DNA of 64,000 nt, taken from sequence record MW883059; one strand, written 5' to 3'. This document shows positions 7,504-39,557 of this stretch, piece by piece. This stretch comes from Escherichia phage vB_EcoM_SYGD1. Each line of letters opens with the position of its first letter. The stretch's first letter is position 1. The translations under genes and the position numbers were made by a program. The notes beneath the pieces are model-generated. The model was not told the origin of the DNA, ran no database searches, and saw only the letters and a program-made list of their open reading frames with translations.

Positions 7504-7557
7504 GTTTACAAGTCCCTCGTGTTGTGTTATAGTAGACTTACTGACATAACATGAGGA
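7504..7557 (+). promoter_or_regulatory. sigma70-type early promoter cassette, copy A (duplicated at 21105-21158)
   Basis: GTTTAC, 17-18 nt spacer, TATAGT, then leader ...CTGACATAACATGAGGA; 53/54 identical to the second copy. Confidence 0.6.
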
Positions 7558-16689: not shown

Positions 16690-16958
16690 TGTTTGTTGTT
16701 CACACTATTTATGAAAATGAAGGTAATACTACACGTGATTACGGTCACGTAAATCAATTTTTTAGATGCAATCCAGAATTCCGAGCTCAAAAAGACGAAC
16801 GAATTTTTAAAAAATGTGTAGAGCAAGGTTTCATTTACGTCAAGCACTGGATGCAAGGAAATAAAGTTAGAACTACATATCATAGGTCTTTAACTGAGCT
16901 TAATGATGAATTGATTTATAATAGAGCTGTAAACCAAACCTTGAAGGATGAGCAATGA
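16689..16958 (+). CDS. hypothetical protein (30.1 position)
   Basis: 89-codon ORF; ATG overlaps previous stop. Confidence 0.55.
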   Translation: MFVVHTIYENEGNTTRDYGHVNQFFRCNPEFRAQKDERIFKKCVEQGFIYVKHWMQGNKVRTTYHRSLTELNDELIYNRAVNQTLKDEQ

Positions 16959-18415
16959 TTCTTAAAATTCTGAATGAAATAGCATCTATTGGTTCAACTA
17001 AGCAGAAGCAAGCAATTCTTGAAAAGAATAAAGATAATGAATTGCTTAAACGAGTATATCGTCTGACTTATTCTCGTGGGTTACAGTATTATATCAAGAA
17101 ATGGCCTAAACCTGGTATTGCTACCCAGAGTTTTGGAATGCTGACCATTACCGATATGCTTGACTTCATTGAATTCACGTTAGCTACTCGGAAATTGACT
17201 GGAAATGCTGCAATTGAGGAATTAACTGGATATATCACTGATGGTAAAAAGGATGATGTTGAAGTTTTGCGTCGAGTGATGATGCGAGACCTTGAATGCG
17301 GTGCTTCAGTATCTATTGCAAACAAAGTTTGGCCAGGTTTAATTCCTGAACAACCTCAAATGCTAGCAAGTTCTTATGATGAAAAAGGCATTAGTAAGAA
17401 TATCAAATTTCCAGCCTTTGCACAGTTAAAAGCAGATGGAGCTCGGTGTTTTGCTGAAGTTCGAGGTGATGAATTAGATGATGTTCGTCTTTTATCGCGA
17501 GCTGGTAATGAATATCTAGGATTAGATCTTCTTAAGGAAGAATTAATCAAAATGACTGCTGAAGCCCGCCAGATTCATCCAGAAGGCGTGTTAATTGATG
17601 GCGAATTGGTATACCATGAGCAAGTTAAAAAGGAACCAGAAGGCCTAGATTTTCTTTTTGACGCTCCTGAAAATAGTAAAGTTAAAGACTTCGCAGAAGT
17701 AGCTGAATCTCGTACTGCTTCTAATGGAATCGCTAATAAATCTTTAAAGGGAACTATTTCAGAAAAAGAAGCCAAATGCATGAAGTTTCAGGTCTGGGAT
17801 TATGTTCCGTTAGTAGAAATATACGGTCTTCCGGCGTTTCGTTTAAAATATGATGTACGTTTTTCTAAACTAGAACAAATGACATCAGGATATGATAAAG
17901 TAATTTTAATTGAAAACCAGGTAGTAAATAACCTAGATGAAGCTAAGGTAATTTATAAAAAATATATTGACCAAGGTCTTGAAGGTATTATTCTCAAAAA
18001 TACCGATGGATTGTGGGAAAATGCTCGTTCAAAAAATCTCTATAAATTTAAAGAAGTAATTGATGTTGATTTAAAAATTGTAGGAATTTATCCTCACCGT
18101 AAAGACCCTACTAAAGCGGGTGGATTTATTCTTGAATCAGAGTGTGGAAAAATTAAAGTAAATGCAGGTTCAGGCTTAAAAGATAAAGCTGGTGTAAAAT
18201 CACATGAACTTGACCGTACTCGCATTATGGAAAACCAAAATTATTATATTGGAAAAATTCTAGAGTGCGAATGCAACGGTTGGTTAAAATCTGATGGCCG
18301 CACTGATTACGTTAAATTATTTCTTCCGATTGCGATTCGTTTACGTGAAGATAAAACTAAAGCTAATACATTCGAGGATGTATTTGGTGATTTTCATGAG
18401 GTAACTGGTCTATGA
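16955..18415 (+). CDS. 30: ATP-dependent DNA ligase
   Basis: 486 aa; adenylation motif AQLKADGARCF; MILKILNEIASIGSTKQKQAILEKN... Confidence 0.95.
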   Translation: MILKILNEIASIGSTKQKQAILEKNKDNELLKRVYRLTYSRGLQYYIKKWPKPGIATQSFGMLTITDMLDFIEFTLATRKLTGNAAIEELTGYITDGKKDDVEVLRRVMMRDLECGASVSIANKVWPGLIPEQPQMLASSYDEKGISKNIKFPAFAQLKADGARCFAEVRGDELDDVRLLSRAGNEYLGLDLLKEELIKMTAEARQIHPEGVLIDGELVYHEQVKKEPEGLDFLFDAPENSKVKDFAEVAESRTASNGIANKSLKGTISEKEAKCMKFQVWDYVPLVEIYGLPAFRLKYDVRFSKLEQMTSGYDKVILIENQVVNNLDEAKVIYKKYIDQGLEGIILKNTDGLWENARSKNLYKFKEVIDVDLKIVGIYPHRKDPTKAGGFILESECGKIKVNAGSGLKDKAGVKSHELDRTRIMENQNYYIGKILECECNGWLKSDGRTDYVKLFLPIAIRLREDKTKANTFEDVFGDFHEVTGL

Positions 18416-18600
18416 AAGCTTACTTAGAAACAATTGTCGTGGCTCAAAAAGAAGGTGGAGATGTTTCTACTTCGGTATCACAAGTCATTCTCGAATTTGT
18501 AGATGCATATGCTTATAATAAATTTACAGAAACATTTGATGCCTACGAAAAAGGTCCAAAGTTTGAAATATATCGTACTCTCTTACCACTAGATTATTAA
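18412..18600 (+). CDS. hypothetical protein
   Basis: 62-codon ORF coupled to ligase stop. Confidence 0.5.
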   Translation: MKAYLETIVVAQKEGGDVSTSVSQVILEFVDAYAYNKFTETFDAYEKGPKFEIYRTLLPLDY

Positions 18601-18616
18601 AGGCCTTCGGGCCTTT
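18601..18616 (+). terminator. GC hairpin after the 18412 ORF
   Basis: AGGCC-TTCG-GGCCT followed by T/A-rich run. Confidence 0.5.
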
Positions 18617-18621
18617 AATTT

Positions 18622-18629
18622 TATAAATA
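18622..18629 (+). promoter_or_regulatory. late promoter (TATAAATA) upstream of alt
   Basis: Exact TATAAATA 21 nt upstream of alt start; Alt is a virion-packaged protein so late expression fits. Confidence 0.5.
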
Positions 18630-18649: not shown

Positions 18650-20746
18650 ATGATGGAACTTATTACAGAATTATTTGACGAAGATACTACTCTTCCGATT
18701 ACAAACTTAAATCCAAAGAAGAAAATACCGCAAATTTTTTCAGTTCATGTTGATGACGCAATTGAACAACCAGGCTTTCGTTTATGTACCTATACATCTG
18801 GAGGTGATACTAATCGCGATTTAAAAATGGGCGATAAAATGATGCATATTGTTCCTTTTACATTAACTGCTAAAGGTTCAATTGCTAAATTAAAAGGTCT
18901 CGGTCCAAGCCCAATTAATTACATCAATTCAGTTTTTACTGTTGCAATGCAGACGATGCGTCAGTATAAAATTGATGCATGTATGCTCCGTATTCTTAAG
19001 TCTAAAACTGCTGGTCAAGCTCGACAAATTCAAGTTATTGCTGATAGACTTATCCGTAGTCGTTCAGGTGGCAGATACGTCCTTCTTAAGGAACTCTGGG
19101 ATTACGATAAAAAGTATGCATATATTCTTATACATCGCAAAAATGTATCACTAGAAGACATTCCAGGAGTTCCGGAAATTAGTACAGAGCTCTTTACTAA
19201 AGTTGAATCGAAGGTCGGCGATGTTTATATCAATAAAGATACCGGAGCTCAAGTAACTAAAAATGAGGCAATTGCAGCATCTATTGCGCAAGAAAACGAT
19301 AAACGTTCTGACCAAGCTGTAATCGTTAAAGTTAAAATTTCCCGTAGAGCAATTGCACAAAGTCAGTCATTGGAATCTTCTAGATTTGAAAGTGAATTAT
19401 TCCAAAAGTATGAATCTACCGCAGCTAATTTCAATAAACCTGCTACCGCTCCTTTAATTCCCGAAGCGGAAGAAATGAAACTTGGAATTAATTCATTAGC
19501 TTCTAAAACCAAGGCAGCAAAAATTATTGCCGAAGGAACCGCAAATGAACTTCATTATGATTATAAATTCTTTTCAAAAAGTGAGGTTGATGAAGTTTCT
19601 GAAAAGATTAAAGATGTAATTCTTAATGCGATTAAAAATGAACCAACTACTTCAATAAAATGTTTAGAGAAATACGCAGCAGCCGTTAATCAACTCTTTG
19701 AAGAATATAAAGATAATTGGCTTGATAAACATAATAAAACTCGTAAAGGGCAGTCAGATGAAGTCTGGGAAGAAATAACTAAAAATTCCTGGAACGCAGC
19801 AAAAACTAAATTCCTCAAAAGAATGATTTATAGTTTTTCTGGAATTGGTGCAGGTCCAATGATTGATATTACTATTGCCCGTGATGGTTCTAAATATACT
19901 CCATCACAAAAGCGTGGCATTAGAGAGTATTGTGGTTCAGGATATACTGACATCAATAATCTTCTTTTAGGACGCTACAATCCAGAACGATATGATGTAA
20001 TGAGTGAAAAAGAAATTGAATCTGCTATAAATAACTTAGATTCAGCTTTTGAAAATGGTGACCGTATACCAGAAGGCATTACAGTTTATCGTGCTCAAAG
20101 TATGACTGCTCCTATATACGAAGCACTAGTTAAAAATAAAGTGTTCTATTTCAGAAATTTTGTATCTACTTCTTTAACTCCTATCATTTTTGGACGTTTT
20201 GGAATTACACATGCTGGTATCGGTCTTTTAGAACCAGAAGCTCGTAATGAATTAACAGTTGATAAAAATGAAGAAGGAATAACTATTAATCCAAACGAAA
20301 TAAGAGCGTATAAAGAAAATCCTGAATACGTTAAAGTTCAAATAGGATGGGCAATTGATGGAGCTCATAAAGTTAATGTTGTATATCCAGGAAGTCTCGG
20401 AATAGCAACTGAAGCTGAAGTTATTTTACCACGCGGATTGATGGTCAAAGTTAATAAAATAACTGATGCTTCTAATAATGACGGAACAACATCTAATAAT
20501 ACAAAACTCATTCAAGCTGAAGTTATGACTACGGAAGAACTCACCGAATCAGTAATTTATGACGGTGACCGTCTAATGGAAACTGGTGAAGTAGTTGCAA
20601 TGACAGATGATATTGAAATAGAAGACAGAGTTGACTTTGCATCATTTGTTTCATCAAATGTTAAACAGAAAGCAGAATCATCTCTCGGAATTATTGCGTC
20701 TTGCATAGATATTACAAACATGCCTTACAAGTTCGTTCAAGGATAA
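18650..20746 (+). CDS. alt: Alt ADP-ribosyltransferase (virion-packaged, modifies host RNA polymerase)
   Basis: 698 aa; MELITELFD... N-terminus; C-terminal ART-like YRAQ / STS / EAE elements. Confidence 0.9.
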   Translation: MMELITELFDEDTTLPITNLNPKKKIPQIFSVHVDDAIEQPGFRLCTYTSGGDTNRDLKMGDKMMHIVPFTLTAKGSIAKLKGLGPSPINYINSVFTVAMQTMRQYKIDACMLRILKSKTAGQARQIQVIADRLIRSRSGGRYVLLKELWDYDKKYAYILIHRKNVSLEDIPGVPEISTELFTKVESKVGDVYINKDTGAQVTKNEAIAASIAQENDKRSDQAVIVKVKISRRAIAQSQSLESSRFESELFQKYESTAANFNKPATAPLIPEAEEMKLGINSLASKTKAAKIIAEGTANELHYDYKFFSKSEVDEVSEKIKDVILNAIKNEPTTSIKCLEKYAAAVNQLFEEYKDNWLDKHNKTRKGQSDEVWEEITKNSWNAAKTKFLKRMIYSFSGIGAGPMIDITIARDGSKYTPSQKRGIREYCGSGYTDINNLLLGRYNPERYDVMSEKEIESAINNLDSAFENGDRIPEGITVYRAQSMTAPIYEALVKNKVFYFRNFVSTSLTPIIFGRFGITHAGIGLLEPEARNELTVDKNEEGITINPNEIRAYKENPEYVKVQIGWAIDGAHKVNVVYPGSLGIATEAEVILPRGLMVKVNKITDASNNDGTTSNNTKLIQAEVMTTEELTESVIYDGDRLMETGEVVAMTDDIEIEDRVDFASFVSSNVKQKAESSLGIIASCIDITNMPYKFVQG

Positions 20747-20749
20747 ATC

Positions 20750-21136
20750 ATGGAACTTATTACAGAATTATTTGACGGCGCTTCGGCGCCGGTTGTTAAC
20801 TTAAATCCTAAGCATAAAATACCTCAAATTTTTGCTATTCAAGCAGGTGAAGAAAGCGTGCTTCCTGGATTTAGATTTTGTACATACACCTCTGGCGGTG
20901 ATACAAATAAAAACGTTAAGCCAGGCGATAAAATGATGCATATCGTAATGATAGGTGTTAATGAGAAACTATCATTAGTTAAACTTAAAAACTTGGGTGG
21001 AAATCCAATTGGTGTCATTAATGCGGTTTTTGATACTGCTCTTCAAACAATGAAACAGTATAAAATCGACGCATGCCTATTACGCGTACTAAAAAGTTCA
21101 AAATGTAGTTTACAAGTCCCTCGTGTTGTGTTATAG
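20750..21136 (+). CDS. truncated paralogue of the Alt N-terminal region (128 aa)
   Basis: MELITELFDGASAPVVNLNPKHKIPQIF... aligns with Alt residues 2-125; last 9 codons are read from the duplicated promoter cassette. Confidence 0.6.
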   Translation: MELITELFDGASAPVVNLNPKHKIPQIFAIQAGEESVLPGFRFCTYTSGGDTNKNVKPGDKMMHIVMIGVNEKLSLVKLKNLGGNPIGVINAVFDTALQTMKQYKIDACLLRVLKSSKCSLQVPRVVL

Positions 21137-21158
21137 TAGATTTACTGACATAACATGA
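21105..21158 (+). promoter_or_regulatory. sigma70-type early promoter cassette, copy B (duplicate of 7504-7557)
   Basis: GTTTACAAGTCCCTCGTGTTGTGTTATAGTAGATTTACTGACATAACATGAGGA; one mismatch to copy A. Confidence 0.55.
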
Positions 21159-21168
21159 GGAACATAAA

Positions 21169-21459
21169 ATGAAATCTTCTTTGCGCTTTTTAGGTCAAGA
21201 ACTCGTAGTTGAAGGCGTTATTCCTGCTGATAACGCTTTTAATGAAGCTGTTTACGATGAATTTATCAAAATTTTTGGAACAGATAAAAAGTTCGGAATT
21301 TTTCCTTCTGAAAATTTTTCAAAGCCAGAACAGACTGAAAGCATTTTCCAAGGTGTAGTAACAGGTAAATTTGAGTCAGAAGCTCCGGTAAAAATTGAAG
21401 TTTATATTGAAGACAGTTTAGTTGCTTCAGTTGCTGCTTTTATTTCATTCCGTAAATAA
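21169..21459 (+). CDS. hypothetical protein
   Basis: 96-codon ORF with GAGGA RBS; last + strand gene before the convergent terminator. Confidence 0.55.
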   Translation: MKSSLRFLGQELVVEGVIPADNAFNEAVYDEFIKIFGTDKKFGIFPSENFSKPEQTESIFQGVVTGKFESEAPVKIEVYIEDSLVASVAAFISFRK

Positions 21460-21464
21460 AAATA

Positions 21465-21484
21465 TGGGGACCTTTCGGTCCCCA
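21465..21484. terminator. bidirectional terminator between the 21169 ORF (+) and gene 54 (-)
   Basis: TGGGGACC-TTTC-GGTCCCCA with T-rich flank on + strand. Confidence 0.65.
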
Positions 21485-21487
21485 TTG

Positions 21488-35796: not shown

Positions 35797-37080
35797 TTAT
35801 TCATCAACGATAATTTTTGGTAGCTTAACACCTAATAAAACAGACAAATCTGAACGACCCGCCATTTTATCCATGTCTCCACCATCAATTATTCTTGCTT
35901 CTTTTTCATCTTTTGCTACAGTGTAAGGATTTGCTGATAAAGCATATCTAACTAATAAACCGATAGATGGCTGCAAACTTTCTGGGTCAACTACAACTTT
36001 AAATGCACCTACATGTTCAGGGTCATCTAAGTCAAGACCTTCTGTATACGGAGCATAGAAAATTGATCCAACAATTTCTTTTTCACCGATATTTTCTACT
36101 ACACCAACGATTACATAATCTAATGGGCTGTTAGTATCGCAATAAAGCGGTAAACCATTAGCTAAGAACCCATAGGCATTTTGTGAAAGATATTTATCAT
36201 CTTCTGGTTTATGTTTTAACCAACCTGATGCAGCAAGAATCGCAGCAGCACGAGCTGAAGCAACACAGAACGTTGCTGTATAAGTTGATTCTTTTTGGAT
36301 ATGCGAAACCATTTCACATACCATTCGGTATAATGAACGACCAGCTTCAGGTGCAGATGCATAACTCAAATCAATGAATCCGGTATCAGTAATTCCTGTA
36401 ACTTTATAGCGTTTTGATACTGTAATCAAAGATTGCAGAATATCTTTATTGATTTCATCTGCCATTTCAGTTGCAAGCAAATCTTCCAAGAAATTAGGAG
36501 CATCGAATCCATTTGCTTCTAAATCTTGTGCTAATTCAACTGTGATACCAGTTTTAAGTTTACGAGATTTAACTGCGGTTTGCCATTTATTAATCTGGAA
36601 TCTAGCATCAGCAATTTCGCTATCAGAGCTTTCAAATTTGCTTGTTGATGCTGCATCAGAAAATAGACGAACCTTTAAAAGAACAATTGCAATCTGAAGA
36701 GCTAATTCTAAATCGCTTTCTTCAATGGTAGCAAATGGTGTATCTTCTAATACTTTATAAACGATATTATTATATTTGAATAAATCGCCTTTATTGAGAG
36801 TTAATTTAGACTCTTCTGTTAATTCAGTGATTTGTTCTCGGTCTACATATCCAGCTTCACCAGCGTAAGTAGCACCAGTTTTAAATGTAAATTCGTTATC
36901 TGGATTAAGGTATTTGATACCATAAAAAGCAGCAACAGGTTGATTAGTTCTTTGCGTTGCTACAATGTCAGAATATATTAATTTAGTGGTAGCGCGAGTC
37001 AAAGCAACGAGATTTGGGCGACCGATTGAGTTGCTATTCGTTGTGGTTGATTCGCGCAGAAGTTCGTTGATTTTAGCCAT
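35797..37080 (-). CDS. 24: head vertex protein
   Basis: 427 aa; capsid-fold paralogue downstream of the major capsid protein. Confidence 0.9.
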   Translation of the reverse strand: MAKINELLRESTTTNSNSIGRPNLVALTRATTKLIYSDIVATQRTNQPVAAFYGIKYLNPDNEFTFKTGATYAGEAGYVDREQITELTEESKLTLNKGDLFKYNNIVYKVLEDTPFATIEESDLELALQIAIVLLKVRLFSDAASTSKFESSDSEIADARFQINKWQTAVKSRKLKTGITVELAQDLEANGFDAPNFLEDLLATEMADEINKDILQSLITVSKRYKVTGITDTGFIDLSYASAPEAGRSLYRMVCEMVSHIQKESTYTATFCVASARAAAILAASGWLKHKPEDDKYLSQNAYGFLANGLPLYCDTNSPLDYVIVGVVENIGEKEIVGSIFYAPYTEGLDLDDPEHVGAFKVVVDPESLQPSIGLLVRYALSANPYTVAKDEKEARIIDGGDMDKMAGRSDLSVLLGVKLPKIIVDE

Positions 37081-37163: not shown

Positions 37164-38729
37164 TTAGATACCTTTAACATATACACGGCGGAAGTAAGCG
37201 TTTTTACCAAGGCTATTCAGAATAGAAGGCATACCGCTTTGAATGCGAGAAGCCGGAGCCTGAGCAGCGGATTCTGCAAATGGGTTGATACCGATACCGT
37301 AACGAGTTTTGAATCCCATTACTGGTTGGAAGTTCTTCGGATCGGAACCACGCAGCGGAGTCAGAGCTACATATGGAGCATAGTAAATACCAGCATCCAT
37401 TTCGTTCGGACCTTTATAACCTACGGTGAAATAATCCTGTTTAGCATACTGGTCGATATATACACGGTATTTACCACCCAGAACACCAGCAAATACTGAC
37501 TTGGTAGTATCAGTGTTAAAGCCAGTAGCCAGACCTTGTGCAGCATAAGAAATGCCGGTATCAACTGAAGCCAGAACGTTAACTACGTTACGGGAAGCGA
37601 TAATGAAGTTACCTTCACCACGACCGGTCTGACGAGCAATTTCAACTGCTTCTTTGTCAATCTGGAACAACAGAGCTTTAAAGGATTCACCTGCCCAGCG
37701 AGCACCACGAATATCGATTGGGTCCTGGAAGTCAAATACACCAGCTTTAGAACCCGGAGTCAGGGTCATACCAGATTTACCAACCTGAGCGGAGTAGTTA
37801 ATCCAATCAACAACTTCGCGGTTGATTTCCAGCATAATTTCGGTAGCCAGAATACCAGACAGTTCAGCATCAGCATCCATACCGTGAACAGCGCGAAGGT
37901 CTTGTGCTAATTCAATAGAGTAAGCAGCTTTCAGCTGACGAGATTTAGCTTCGATAACTTGCTTATCGATACGGAAGCCCATTTCATTCCATGGGTTATC
38001 GGTAGAACCGTTAAAACCTTCCTGAAGTTCAGCGATAGAAGTAGCCATACCTTCAGCGATTTCTACCAATACGCCAGCTTCCATTTGTTTCTTAATTTCA
38101 GCATCTAATTTAGCTGCGTCAGATGCGCCTGAATCAATTTGTTTAACTTCTGTAGCTTGCAGATATACTGTACCAGTTTCCTGGAAGAAGTGAGTGTAAA
38201 TAGTTCCGACTTCAAGAGTATCACTTGCTTTCAAAGCAGCGAATTTCTTAGCAGCACCCTGACCAGAGAACATTGCATCTGGACCATACATTGGGTGGAA
38301 TGCTTCTTTAGCACCGGCAGCGATTGGGTCTTTACCATATACTGCGCGCAGTGCGAATACCTGGCCAGTCGGGCTGTTCATTGGCTGAACACCACAAATA
38401 TCGAAAGCAATCAGGTTAGGAATAGCACGACGTACCATACCCATAACAGCTGGGCCAATCTGAGTTACTGCTCCAGAAGTCTGACCTGCAGCGATGTTGG
38501 TAGCATTGTAACCGTGGTCACCACCGATTTCAGCTTCTGTTAAGAAAGAACCGAATGCCTGAGCAATTTTTTCGTCTTTATATTCCGGAGCTGTCTGGAA
38601 ATCTTTTTCCTGGTTTTCAAAGATTTTAGCGATAATCGCTTGTTTGCTATTAGCAATTTCCGGTAAACCTTCACCTTCCAGTAATGGCTTCCATTTGTTC
38701 AAAAGTTCAGCTTTAGTTTTGATAGTCAT
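37164..38729 (-). CDS. 23: major capsid protein
   Basis: 521 aa MTIKTKAELLNKWKPLLEGEGLPEIANSKQAIIAKIF... Confidence 0.97.
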   Translation of the reverse strand: MTIKTKAELLNKWKPLLEGEGLPEIANSKQAIIAKIFENQEKDFQTAPEYKDEKIAQAFGSFLTEAEIGGDHGYNATNIAAGQTSGAVTQIGPAVMGMVRRAIPNLIAFDICGVQPMNSPTGQVFALRAVYGKDPIAAGAKEAFHPMYGPDAMFSGQGAAKKFAALKASDTLEVGTIYTHFFQETGTVYLQATEVKQIDSGASDAAKLDAEIKKQMEAGVLVEIAEGMATSIAELQEGFNGSTDNPWNEMGFRIDKQVIEAKSRQLKAAYSIELAQDLRAVHGMDADAELSGILATEIMLEINREVVDWINYSAQVGKSGMTLTPGSKAGVFDFQDPIDIRGARWAGESFKALLFQIDKEAVEIARQTGRGEGNFIIASRNVVNVLASVDTGISYAAQGLATGFNTDTTKSVFAGVLGGKYRVYIDQYAKQDYFTVGYKGPNEMDAGIYYAPYVALTPLRGSDPKNFQPVMGFKTRYGIGINPFAESAAQAPASRIQSGMPSILNSLGKNAYFRRVYVKGI

Positions 38730-38747: not shown

Positions 38748-39557
38748 TTAGAAACGAGATGCGACTTTCGCATATACACTTACAATATCTTCTGCACCTT
38801 GTGCAGATTTATCTTCTACAGCTTCAGTGACGAAATTCAGTCCGGCTGCTTCAGTATCAGGAGTATTTATACTCTCAGTAATAGTGCTTTCATCTTTATT
38901 AGATTTCTTCACCATTTCTACGATTGCACTCAATTTACTTGAGAATGCATCTGAATAATCCATACCTTCGACCAGAGCAGAGACTTTTTCTTTTTGAGAC
39001 TCAGTCAGATCTTTAGTACTTTCGCTCAATGCCACTTCACGCTGCACATAATTGATATATGCGTCACGCTTATTGAGTTCTTCGAACAGACGAGCTGATT
39101 CTTCTTTATGTTCTTGCAGTTCTTCTTCCATTTCAGCTACAACATCAACTGATTCTTCTGGAACAACAACGTTGTGTTCAACGAAGAGCTCTTTCAATCC
39201 ACCAAGCATGGATTCAAACAATTCGGCTTTGATACCTTTATCTACTGCTAATTTATTTTCAGCGAGCCATTCTTTCGCAAGATGGTCGATGAATTTAGAA
39301 GCTTGCTCAGCGATTTTCTTCTCAGCTTTTTCTTCGGCTTCTTCTTTATTTTTTTCTACTTCTTCTTCTGCTTTTTCAGCAATTTTAGCGATATGAGATT
39401 CAGCTAATTTAACGGCGTGCTGCTTGACGGTAGCTTCGAATACAGTGCCGAAAGTTTCTTTTGCTTCCGGAGAAATATTAACTGATTCGAAAATACTATC
39501 AAGAGCAACGGAAGCATCAATTTTTTGCGCTTCAGCAATCAGTTGTTCTTTAAGCAT
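38748..39557 (-). CDS. 22: prohead core scaffold protein
   Basis: 269 aa, Glu/Lys-rich helical protein. Confidence 0.9.
   Translation of the reverse strand: MLKEQLIAEAQKIDASVALDSIFESVNISPEAKETFGTVFEATVKQHAVKLAESHIAKIAEKAEEEVEKNKEEAEEKAEKKIAEQASKFIDHLAKEWLAENKLAVDKGIKAELFESMLGGLKELFVEHNVVVPEESVDVVAEMEEELQEHKEESARLFEELNKRDAYINYVQREVALSESTKDLTESQKEKVSALVEGMDYSDAFSSKLSAIVEMVKKSNKDESTITESINTPDTEAAGLNFVTEAVEDKSAQGAEDIVSVYAKVASRF

Follow-up and report, generated by a model that had tools for sequence, protein, structure and literature searches.

Directly behind alt, the gene of the packaged ADP-ribosyltransferase, the DNA of Escherichia phage vB_EcoM_SYGD1 (MW883059) has a short ORF whose product resembles the beginning of Alt and ends within a promoter. 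This raises the question of where the ORF comes from, how it came to lack the remainder of an alt gene, and whether it still has a function. The window, by which we mean the whole 64-kb stretch of DNA that was analysed, is Tequatrovirus DNA from a close relative of T4, and the closest database record over the locus is that of Escherichia phage N2 (98.7%). On its plus strand lie, in this order, lig (gp30), alt.1, alt, the 128-codon ORF, and alt.-3, followed by gp54, gp48, and gp29 on the opposite strand, which matches the T4 order 30, alt.1, alt, alt.-1, alt.-2, alt.-3, 54. The features of the locus are as follows:

16955–18415, plus strand: DNA ligase gp30.
18412–18600, plus strand: alt.1, 62 aa.
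18600–18617: hairpin terminator preceding the late promoter box of alt.
18622–18629, plus strand: T4-type late promoter box TATAAATA upstream of alt, read from the sequence.
18653–20746, plus strand: alt, gene of the packaged full-length ADP-ribosyltransferase, 697 aa when read from its second ATG (Pfam, PHROG, and T4 synteny).
20739–20743, plus strand: Shine-Dalgarno AAGGA of the 128-codon ORF, 6 nt before its ATG and overlapping the last sense codon of alt.
20744–20746, plus strand: alt stop codon, followed by three bases (ATC) and the ATG of the ORF at 20750.
20750–21136, plus strand: putative remnant of a second alt gene, 128 codons with an ATG start, equivalent to T4 alt.-1 and alt.-2 unsplit.
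21169–21459, plus strand: alt.-3, DUF5498, 96 aa (Pfam PF17602, E 1.4e-64), served by a 54-nt promoter element.
21464–21485: bidirectional terminator hairpin 3' of alt.-3, from the terminator scan.

The Alt protein of the window matches Pfam PF03496 at residues 378–627 (E 1.5e-37) and PHROG 802 from end to end. Judging from the known T4 late-promoter consensus, the box at 18622–18629 should drive a late transcript that spans alt and the ORF; in T4, the alt protein is late (PMC9697503). The Shine-Dalgarno sequence of the ORF aligns with AGGATA upstream of the start of alt itself. Two observations concern other parts of the window. The product of alt.1 (18412–18600) has a full-length match to Pfam PF24647, "Phage blade protein" (E 2e-29), and three diverged copies of a 54-nt segment (36524–36577, 37900–37953, and 39364–39417), 61–78% identical and about 1.4 kb apart, probably reflect paralogous genes in the structural region.

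The locus is already known from T4, where it is called alt.-1 and alt.-2, which answers a question that the first-pass annotation of this DNA had left open. The T4 GenBank record attributes the two genes to an ancient duplication of the beginning of alt that a stop and a new start now interrupt, and Nolan 2006 counts them among the paralogous duplications of alt (PMC1524935). They (NP_049810 and NP_049809) share with the ORF of the window the locus, the strand, the junction described below, the tail ..SSKCSLQVPRVVL, and the stop, at 97.7–98.5% identity by tblastn. T4 differs in having four A residues where the window has five, a 1-nt deletion at 20909–20913 by which the ORF falls into two, of 61 and 67 codons. 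The corresponding protein families tile the intact product: PHROG 23015 (the alt.-1 family) matches residues 1–56 (E 1.7e-41) and PHROG 15247 (the alt.-2 family) residues 62–128 (E 5.7e-49).

The following features describe the ORF and the promoter element into which it runs:

20765–20767, plus strand: GAA codon of Glu6, the glutamate in the prohead-protease motif ITE-6, intact in the window.
20909–20913, plus strand: A5 run, which is A4 in T4 and 11 other alleles.
21108–21161, plus strand: 54-nt early-promoter, leader, and Shine-Dalgarno element of alt.-3 (-35 box 21109–21114, -10 box 21132–21137, Shine-Dalgarno 21157–21161).
21134–21136, plus strand: stop TAG of the ORF, within the -10 hexamer of the element.
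7504–7557, plus strand: second copy of the element, between rnlA and alc (53/54 identity).

The first-pass annotation had placed the start of this ORF four bases after the alt stop, and the start and the quoted translation are exactly as it gave them. It had also proposed homology to Alt residues 1–125, to be checked by aligning the two proteins. The homology is plain, with 73/117 identities (62%), one gap, and an E-value of 3e-49 in BLASTP against the Alt of the window, but the alignment covers only Alt 1–117 and ORF residues 1–116. At the DNA level, 230/348 positions (66%) of the shared part are identical to alt. Codons 1–116 thus correspond to the N-terminal region of Alt, and codons 117–128 are an out-of-frame tail (S-K-C-S-L-Q-V-P-R-V-V-L). 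The earlier claim that the similarity stops exactly at the promoter element needs a small correction: it ends at codon 116 (21097), 10 nt before position 21108, although the last codons (120–128, SLQVPRVVL) are indeed read from the element. The 128-aa product has no Pfam match, and the ADP-ribosyltransferase (ART) catalytic domain with its R, STS, and ExE motifs is absent. In the window allele, the start codon, Glu6, and the A5 run are all intact, and the Shine-Dalgarno sequence is good. One feature of the alignment is an observation in its own right: the first 27 nt (9 codons, MELITELFD) of alt (18653–18679) and of the ORF (20750–20776) are 100% identical, against only 66% over the rest of the shared region. 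Possible explanations are gene conversion and a constraint at the nucleotide level on the start region or the propeptide.

The relatives of the window reveal what the ORF used to be part of. Searching with the 128-aa product by tblastn returned two close classes of matches: the smaller covers residues 1–128, and the much larger covers residues 1–116 at about 99% identity and then stops. In the larger class, the ORF continues as a 685-aa protein encoded between alt and alt.-3; examples are RB51 "alt.-2" (ACP31114; L013, 5001–7058), L003 (4001–6058), and L004, and RefSeq names the product "Alt-like RNA polymerase ADP-ribosyltransferase." Its first 116 residues are 99% identical to the ORF of the window. 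It aligns with Alt over its whole length at 41% identity (about 56–76% in 50-column windows over the first 250 alignment columns), keeps the R, STS, and ExE catalytic motifs, and has a similar ..KF..-stop C-terminal end. Because this paralogue aligns with Alt throughout and retains the catalytic motifs, the part that the ORF of the window has lost was an Alt-like body. The second Alt-like ADP-ribosyltransferase, which T4 is missing, is intact in these records and probably active. The middle region of the paralogue is almost unrelated to Alt, at about 15–20% identity, and this divergence suggests targets different from those of Alt. We searched the literature for a paper on the full-length second alt gene and found none.

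The search for a full-length second alt-like gene at this locus, which the first-pass annotation had proposed, thus returned RB51 and about 400 other records. Megablast with a 1,651-nt segment missing from the window gave 402 records at 80% coverage or more, and the contiguous junction that results from its absence was found in 90, so that the full-length form is roughly four to five times commoner in the records searched. Among these records, the full-length gene is therefore the common state and the stump, including that of T4, the minority. Scans of IMG/VR retrieved 10 loci by protein and 7 by promoter pattern; with so few loci, the survey of alleles relied on individual GenBank phage records.

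Comparison of the two forms locates the junction to the base:

21089–21097, plus strand: deletion junction, the single kept 9-bp repeat CTAAAAAGT, at gene nt 340.
21098–21108, plus strand: surviving 3' terminus of the full-length gene, which in the old frame reads ..TTC AAA ATG TAG.

The sequence CTAAAAAGT occurs perfectly twice in the full-length genes of L004 and L013, at gene nt 340 (codons 114–116, ..LKS..) and at nt 2039, just before ..TTC AAA ATG TAG, 1,699 nt apart. In L003, the 5' copy has one mismatch and reads CTAAAGAGT. The window has a single copy, and TCAAAATGTAG, with which the full-length gene ends, follows directly; the relic at 21098–21108 agrees base for base with the end of the 685-aa gene in L004, L012, and L013. 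The 10 nt between the end of the Alt similarity and the promoter element (TCAAAATGTA) are the old 3' end of the full-length ancestral gene. The distance from the ATG of the ORF to that of alt.-3 is 419 nt in the window and 2,118 nt in full-length genomes, a difference of exactly 1,699. Compared with the RB51-type gene, which has the same position, the same downstream promoter, and the same alt.-3, the window lacks gene nt 349–2047 and with them the ART domain that bears the R, STS, and ExE motifs. At 21106–21108 the old TAG survives, but out of frame, because 1,699 is 3n+1, so reading continues to the next TAG, in the -10 box. The same junction was found in all 22 deletion alleles that we read. 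The first-pass annotation had called the ORF the scar of a second alt-like gene without anything 3' of about codon 120; this holds, with the loss starting at about codon 116 and with full-length relatives in existence.

Read from the sequence, this anatomy is the signature of a deletion between short direct repeats. The rII deletions of T4 are a further case of such events, and the window, which likewise lost exactly one repeat copy, here of 9 bp, and the interval, is nothing unusual among them. Deletions between short direct repeats were described by Albertini 1982, as cited in PMC4122927. We infer a deletion rather than an insertion, and the following course of events. The ancestor would have had alt and then a 685-codon second alt gene, whose TAG directly adjoined the alt.-3 early promoter. 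The loss of 1,699 bp, including the whole ADP-ribosyltransferase domain, would have come about by replication slippage or illegitimate recombination between the two 9-bp repeats CTAAAAAGT (nt 340 and 2039). The old stop would thereby have gone out of frame, adding 12 unrelated codons up to the TAG in the -10 box of the promoter, with the promoter element a bystander at its native site. The stump would still be co-transcribed with alt, but decaying. Very probably, the ORF is what this 1,699-bp deletion left of a full-length alt paralogue that stood in tandem with alt, a remnant that has no function or can be dispensed with.

On this reading it is an ordinary pseudogene, and in most of its carriers the stump is broken further. 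We read 22 of the about 90 deletion alleles, a nonrandom sample picked from ranked lists. The A5-to-A4 frameshift is present in 12 of the 22 and a Glu6 nonsense mutation (GAA to TAA, G16T) in 11, with both in 5, so that 18/22 carry one or the other. Other lesions are a second 1-nt deletion in F25, an insertion of 7 nt in HY03, a loss of 9 nt in F1, and a change of ATG to GTG in LH2. The ORF is open only in the window, N2, AV121, and FL23; judged by its reading frame, the window allele is a rare and least-decayed form. Among the 60 best tblastn records, 44 have the remnant split into two or more pieces, and the record of fPS-2 describes its copy as "similar to N-terminal of ... Alt; putative pseudogene." The commonest point lesion hits precisely the Glu codon of ITE-6 and is found with the A5 run as well as with the A4 run, implying that the alleles have recombined or that the mutation has recurred. 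The independent inactivations may be fewer than the allele counts suggest, since the frameshift and the nonsense mutation each affect one position and could each have arisen once and then been spread by recombination. Some of the frameshifts in databases could be sequencing errors, and the T4 A4 frameshift recurs across many independent T4 records. In HY03 (L029, NC_031047, 54094–54783), the Glu6 stop and the A4 frameshift occur together with a frame-restoring 7-nt duplication, and alt is also annotated in pieces; errors in this record are possible. Point polymorphism among the deletion alleles, counted in the manner of pN/pS with three full-length alleles as outgroup, is skewed to third codon positions. 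This would fit purifying selection, and recombinational import from functional full-length alleles explains it equally well.

A first alternative is that the fragment is made late, enters the prohead core via the N-terminus of Alt, is trimmed by gp21 at ITE-6, and is injected, possibly competing with Alt for incorporation. It draws on the MELITELFD start, whose 27 nt are the same as in alt, and on the retention of the ITE-6 motif, the Glu6 of which is nearly invariant across Alt homologues. The (I/L)-x-E gp21 site of the remnant, MELITE-LFD, is identical to that of Alt, and the predicted N-terminus after cleavage is LFDGASAPVVNLNPK. The terminator scan gave no plus-strand terminator between the late promoter of alt and the ORF. 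[quoted passage not shown] Ali 2017 reports that Alt is cleaved at ITE-6 and LTE-619, losing six N-terminal and 63 C-terminal residues, and asks whether its propeptides target, tether, or regulate (PMC5694885). As the role of the propeptides is posed there as a question, a capsid-targeting signal at the Alt N-terminus, which the first-pass annotation had taken as given, is plausible by analogy rather than established, and the papers on Alt that we consulted describe no experiment showing capsid targeting by its N-terminus.

The predicted structure also lends this alternative something. In an AlphaFold model of the remnant, built with 48 sequences, residues of about 10–116 form a confident compact alpha/beta fold (pLDDT 80–92) and the tail is disordered, so that a stable fragment from open alleles is conceivable. 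Against it, conservation between Alt and its paralogue runs to about residue 240, and codon 116 is therefore no evident domain boundary. We had considered residues 113–117 as such a boundary and dropped the idea, since the ends of the matches there reflect the length of the query. A recurrent protein family consisting of the N-terminal domain only was rejected as well. An exhaustive search of representative sequences with the remnant matched 62 proteins, nearly all of 600–710 aa and matched at their N-terminus, and the few short ones resemble frameshifted or contig-end fragments; a homologous-protein search with the 128-aa query gave three fragments only. Searching the PDB with the remnant model by Foldseek gave nothing significant (best GNAT-like, E about 0.4, TM 0.3–0.39), and we found no solved structure covering the Alt N-terminus. 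As a separate observation, the model (20750–21133) also matches the N-termini of proteins of 530–1,200 aa from Ackermannviridae and vibriophages, at 10–17% identity and TMq 0.45–0.68; large phage proteins may have this fold in common as an N-terminal module.

Against packaging there is also the state of the alleles themselves, with a stop at codon 6 in 11/22 and a frameshift in 12/22. In a T4 time course that included whole-cell proteomics, the alt.-1 and alt.-2 RNAs fall in the same class as that of alt, the protein class is given as NA, the Alt.-1 protein intensities are zero in all samples, and neither Alt.-1 nor Alt.-2 was quantified, the allele measured there being the split one (PMC9697503). 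We regard the packaging of the fragment as very unlikely to explain the ORF, and it is unlikely that it matters.

A second alternative holds that the stump is kept for translation in cis, its tail bringing ribosomes into a hairpin that masks a Shine-Dalgarno sequence, so that alt.-3 would be translated from late read-through RNA. The hairpin is predicted in each copy of the element (21119–21160 and 7515–7556), where the promoter spacer (CCUCGUGUUGUGUU) pairs with the Shine-Dalgarno region of alt.-3 or alc, the CCUC of the spacer with the GAGG of the Shine-Dalgarno sequence, and natural variants of the element keep this pairing. For read-through RNA, the predicted folding energy is -23 kcal/mol at alt.-3 (z -3.6) and -31.9 kcal/mol at alc (z -4.9). 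Transcripts that start at the promoter within the element do not contain the 5' arm of the hairpin and are predicted to be open, at about -3 kcal/mol. These predictions suggest that the hairpin restricts translation of alt.-3 and alc to self-initiated early transcripts, as is known for Shine-Dalgarno masking in several T4 genes. The stop codon of the remnant lies inside the alt.-3 hairpin, and the frame and the stop are retained in T4 alt.-2, which would suit a role in melting it. The reading is, however, built on structure prediction, alleles with both the Glu6 stop and the frameshift persist, F25 restores the old stop upstream of the hairpin, and the alc copy has the same hairpin with no such ORF. 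In T4, moreover, alt.-3 is early in both RNA and protein, and the protein is abundant (PMC9697503, Tables S2 and S3). We give this second alternative only a slight chance. Confined to the phages with open alleles, the broader proposition that the stump is translated from the late alt transcript and is functional, be it as a gp21-trimmed head fragment or by melting the hairpin and extending alt.-3 expression into late infection, is very unlikely; we infer that the remnant generally has no function.

The element itself has been suspected of causing the truncation. The first-pass annotation rightly saw a duplicated 54-bp promoter cassette, for the copies at 21108–21161 and 7504–7557 are identical at 53/54 positions, with no match expected by chance. 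The element is the best sigma-70-type match in the region (TTTACA, a 17-nt spacer, and a TG-extended TATAGT, followed by a GAGGA Shine-Dalgarno and ATG), and the Lutter record annotates a promoter at its position before alt.-3. A third promoter-like site in the window has only 22–23 of the 54 positions in common with either copy. An excision or exchange of the kind associated with PeSL (promoter-early stem-loop) cassettes, in which an alc-type element replaced the 3' part of the gene, could call on the near identity of the copies and on the PeSLs of PST and T4, which share the promoter consensus TTTACW N17 TAYWAT and a Shine-Dalgarno sequence and occur near indels (PMC4122927). Like those cassettes, the element is a repeated early sigma-70-like promoter of this consensus with a Shine-Dalgarno sequence and a start codon, beside an indel (PMC2839356, PMC4122927). 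Unlike them, it has no stem-loop ahead of its promoter: at both copies, coding sequence reaches up to the -35 box, and the sole hairpin is internal; it has two copies only in the 64 kb, and the endpoints of the deletion are outside it, with the junction 10 nt upstream. Full-length genomes have the same element in the same place, directly after the intact 685-aa gene, starting at the G of its TAG stop and at the same distance from alt.-3, and full-length contigs also have the alc copy (L016 and L018 in one contig, L015 and L017 in another). The element was therefore duplicated independently of the truncation and was no crossover site. Ten bases of the old gene survive between junction and element, and the junction itself falls at a 9-bp repeat within the coding sequence, the two copies of which are as far apart as the deletion is long. 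The cassette as recombination partner or cause of the truncation, as the first-pass annotation had it, does not stand, and the chance that such an exchange made the ORF is slighter still. Last, that only the first part of alt was ever duplicated, as the T4 GenBank note words it, and that the 685-aa genes of the relatives are a later extension or acquisition, is scarcely credible at all, since the anatomy of the junction contradicts it: the homology of the 685-aa gene to Alt runs from end to end, including the C-terminal ..KF..-stop, the remnant keeps the last bases of the full-length gene out of frame, and the full-length form is the commoner by the factor given above.

The deletion from a full-length paralogue, our preferred reading, makes the stump itself a textbook gene remnant, already annotated and of little import. 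Many records' pipelines name it "RNA polymerase ADP-ribosyltransferase" despite the absent catalytic domain. What is new, on the sequence comparisons presented here, is the full-length ancestor at the locus and the exact deletion that shortened it. The note in the T4 record can be made more precise accordingly: the whole gene was duplicated, and a precisely reconstructible deletion of 1,699 bp between two 9-bp repeats came later. In sequence, T4 is a natural knockout for a second Alt-like ADP-ribosyltransferase; of the Tequatrovirus records matched at the locus, roughly 80% still encode it, and the missing enzyme bears on how far the host-takeover biology of T4 can be generalised.
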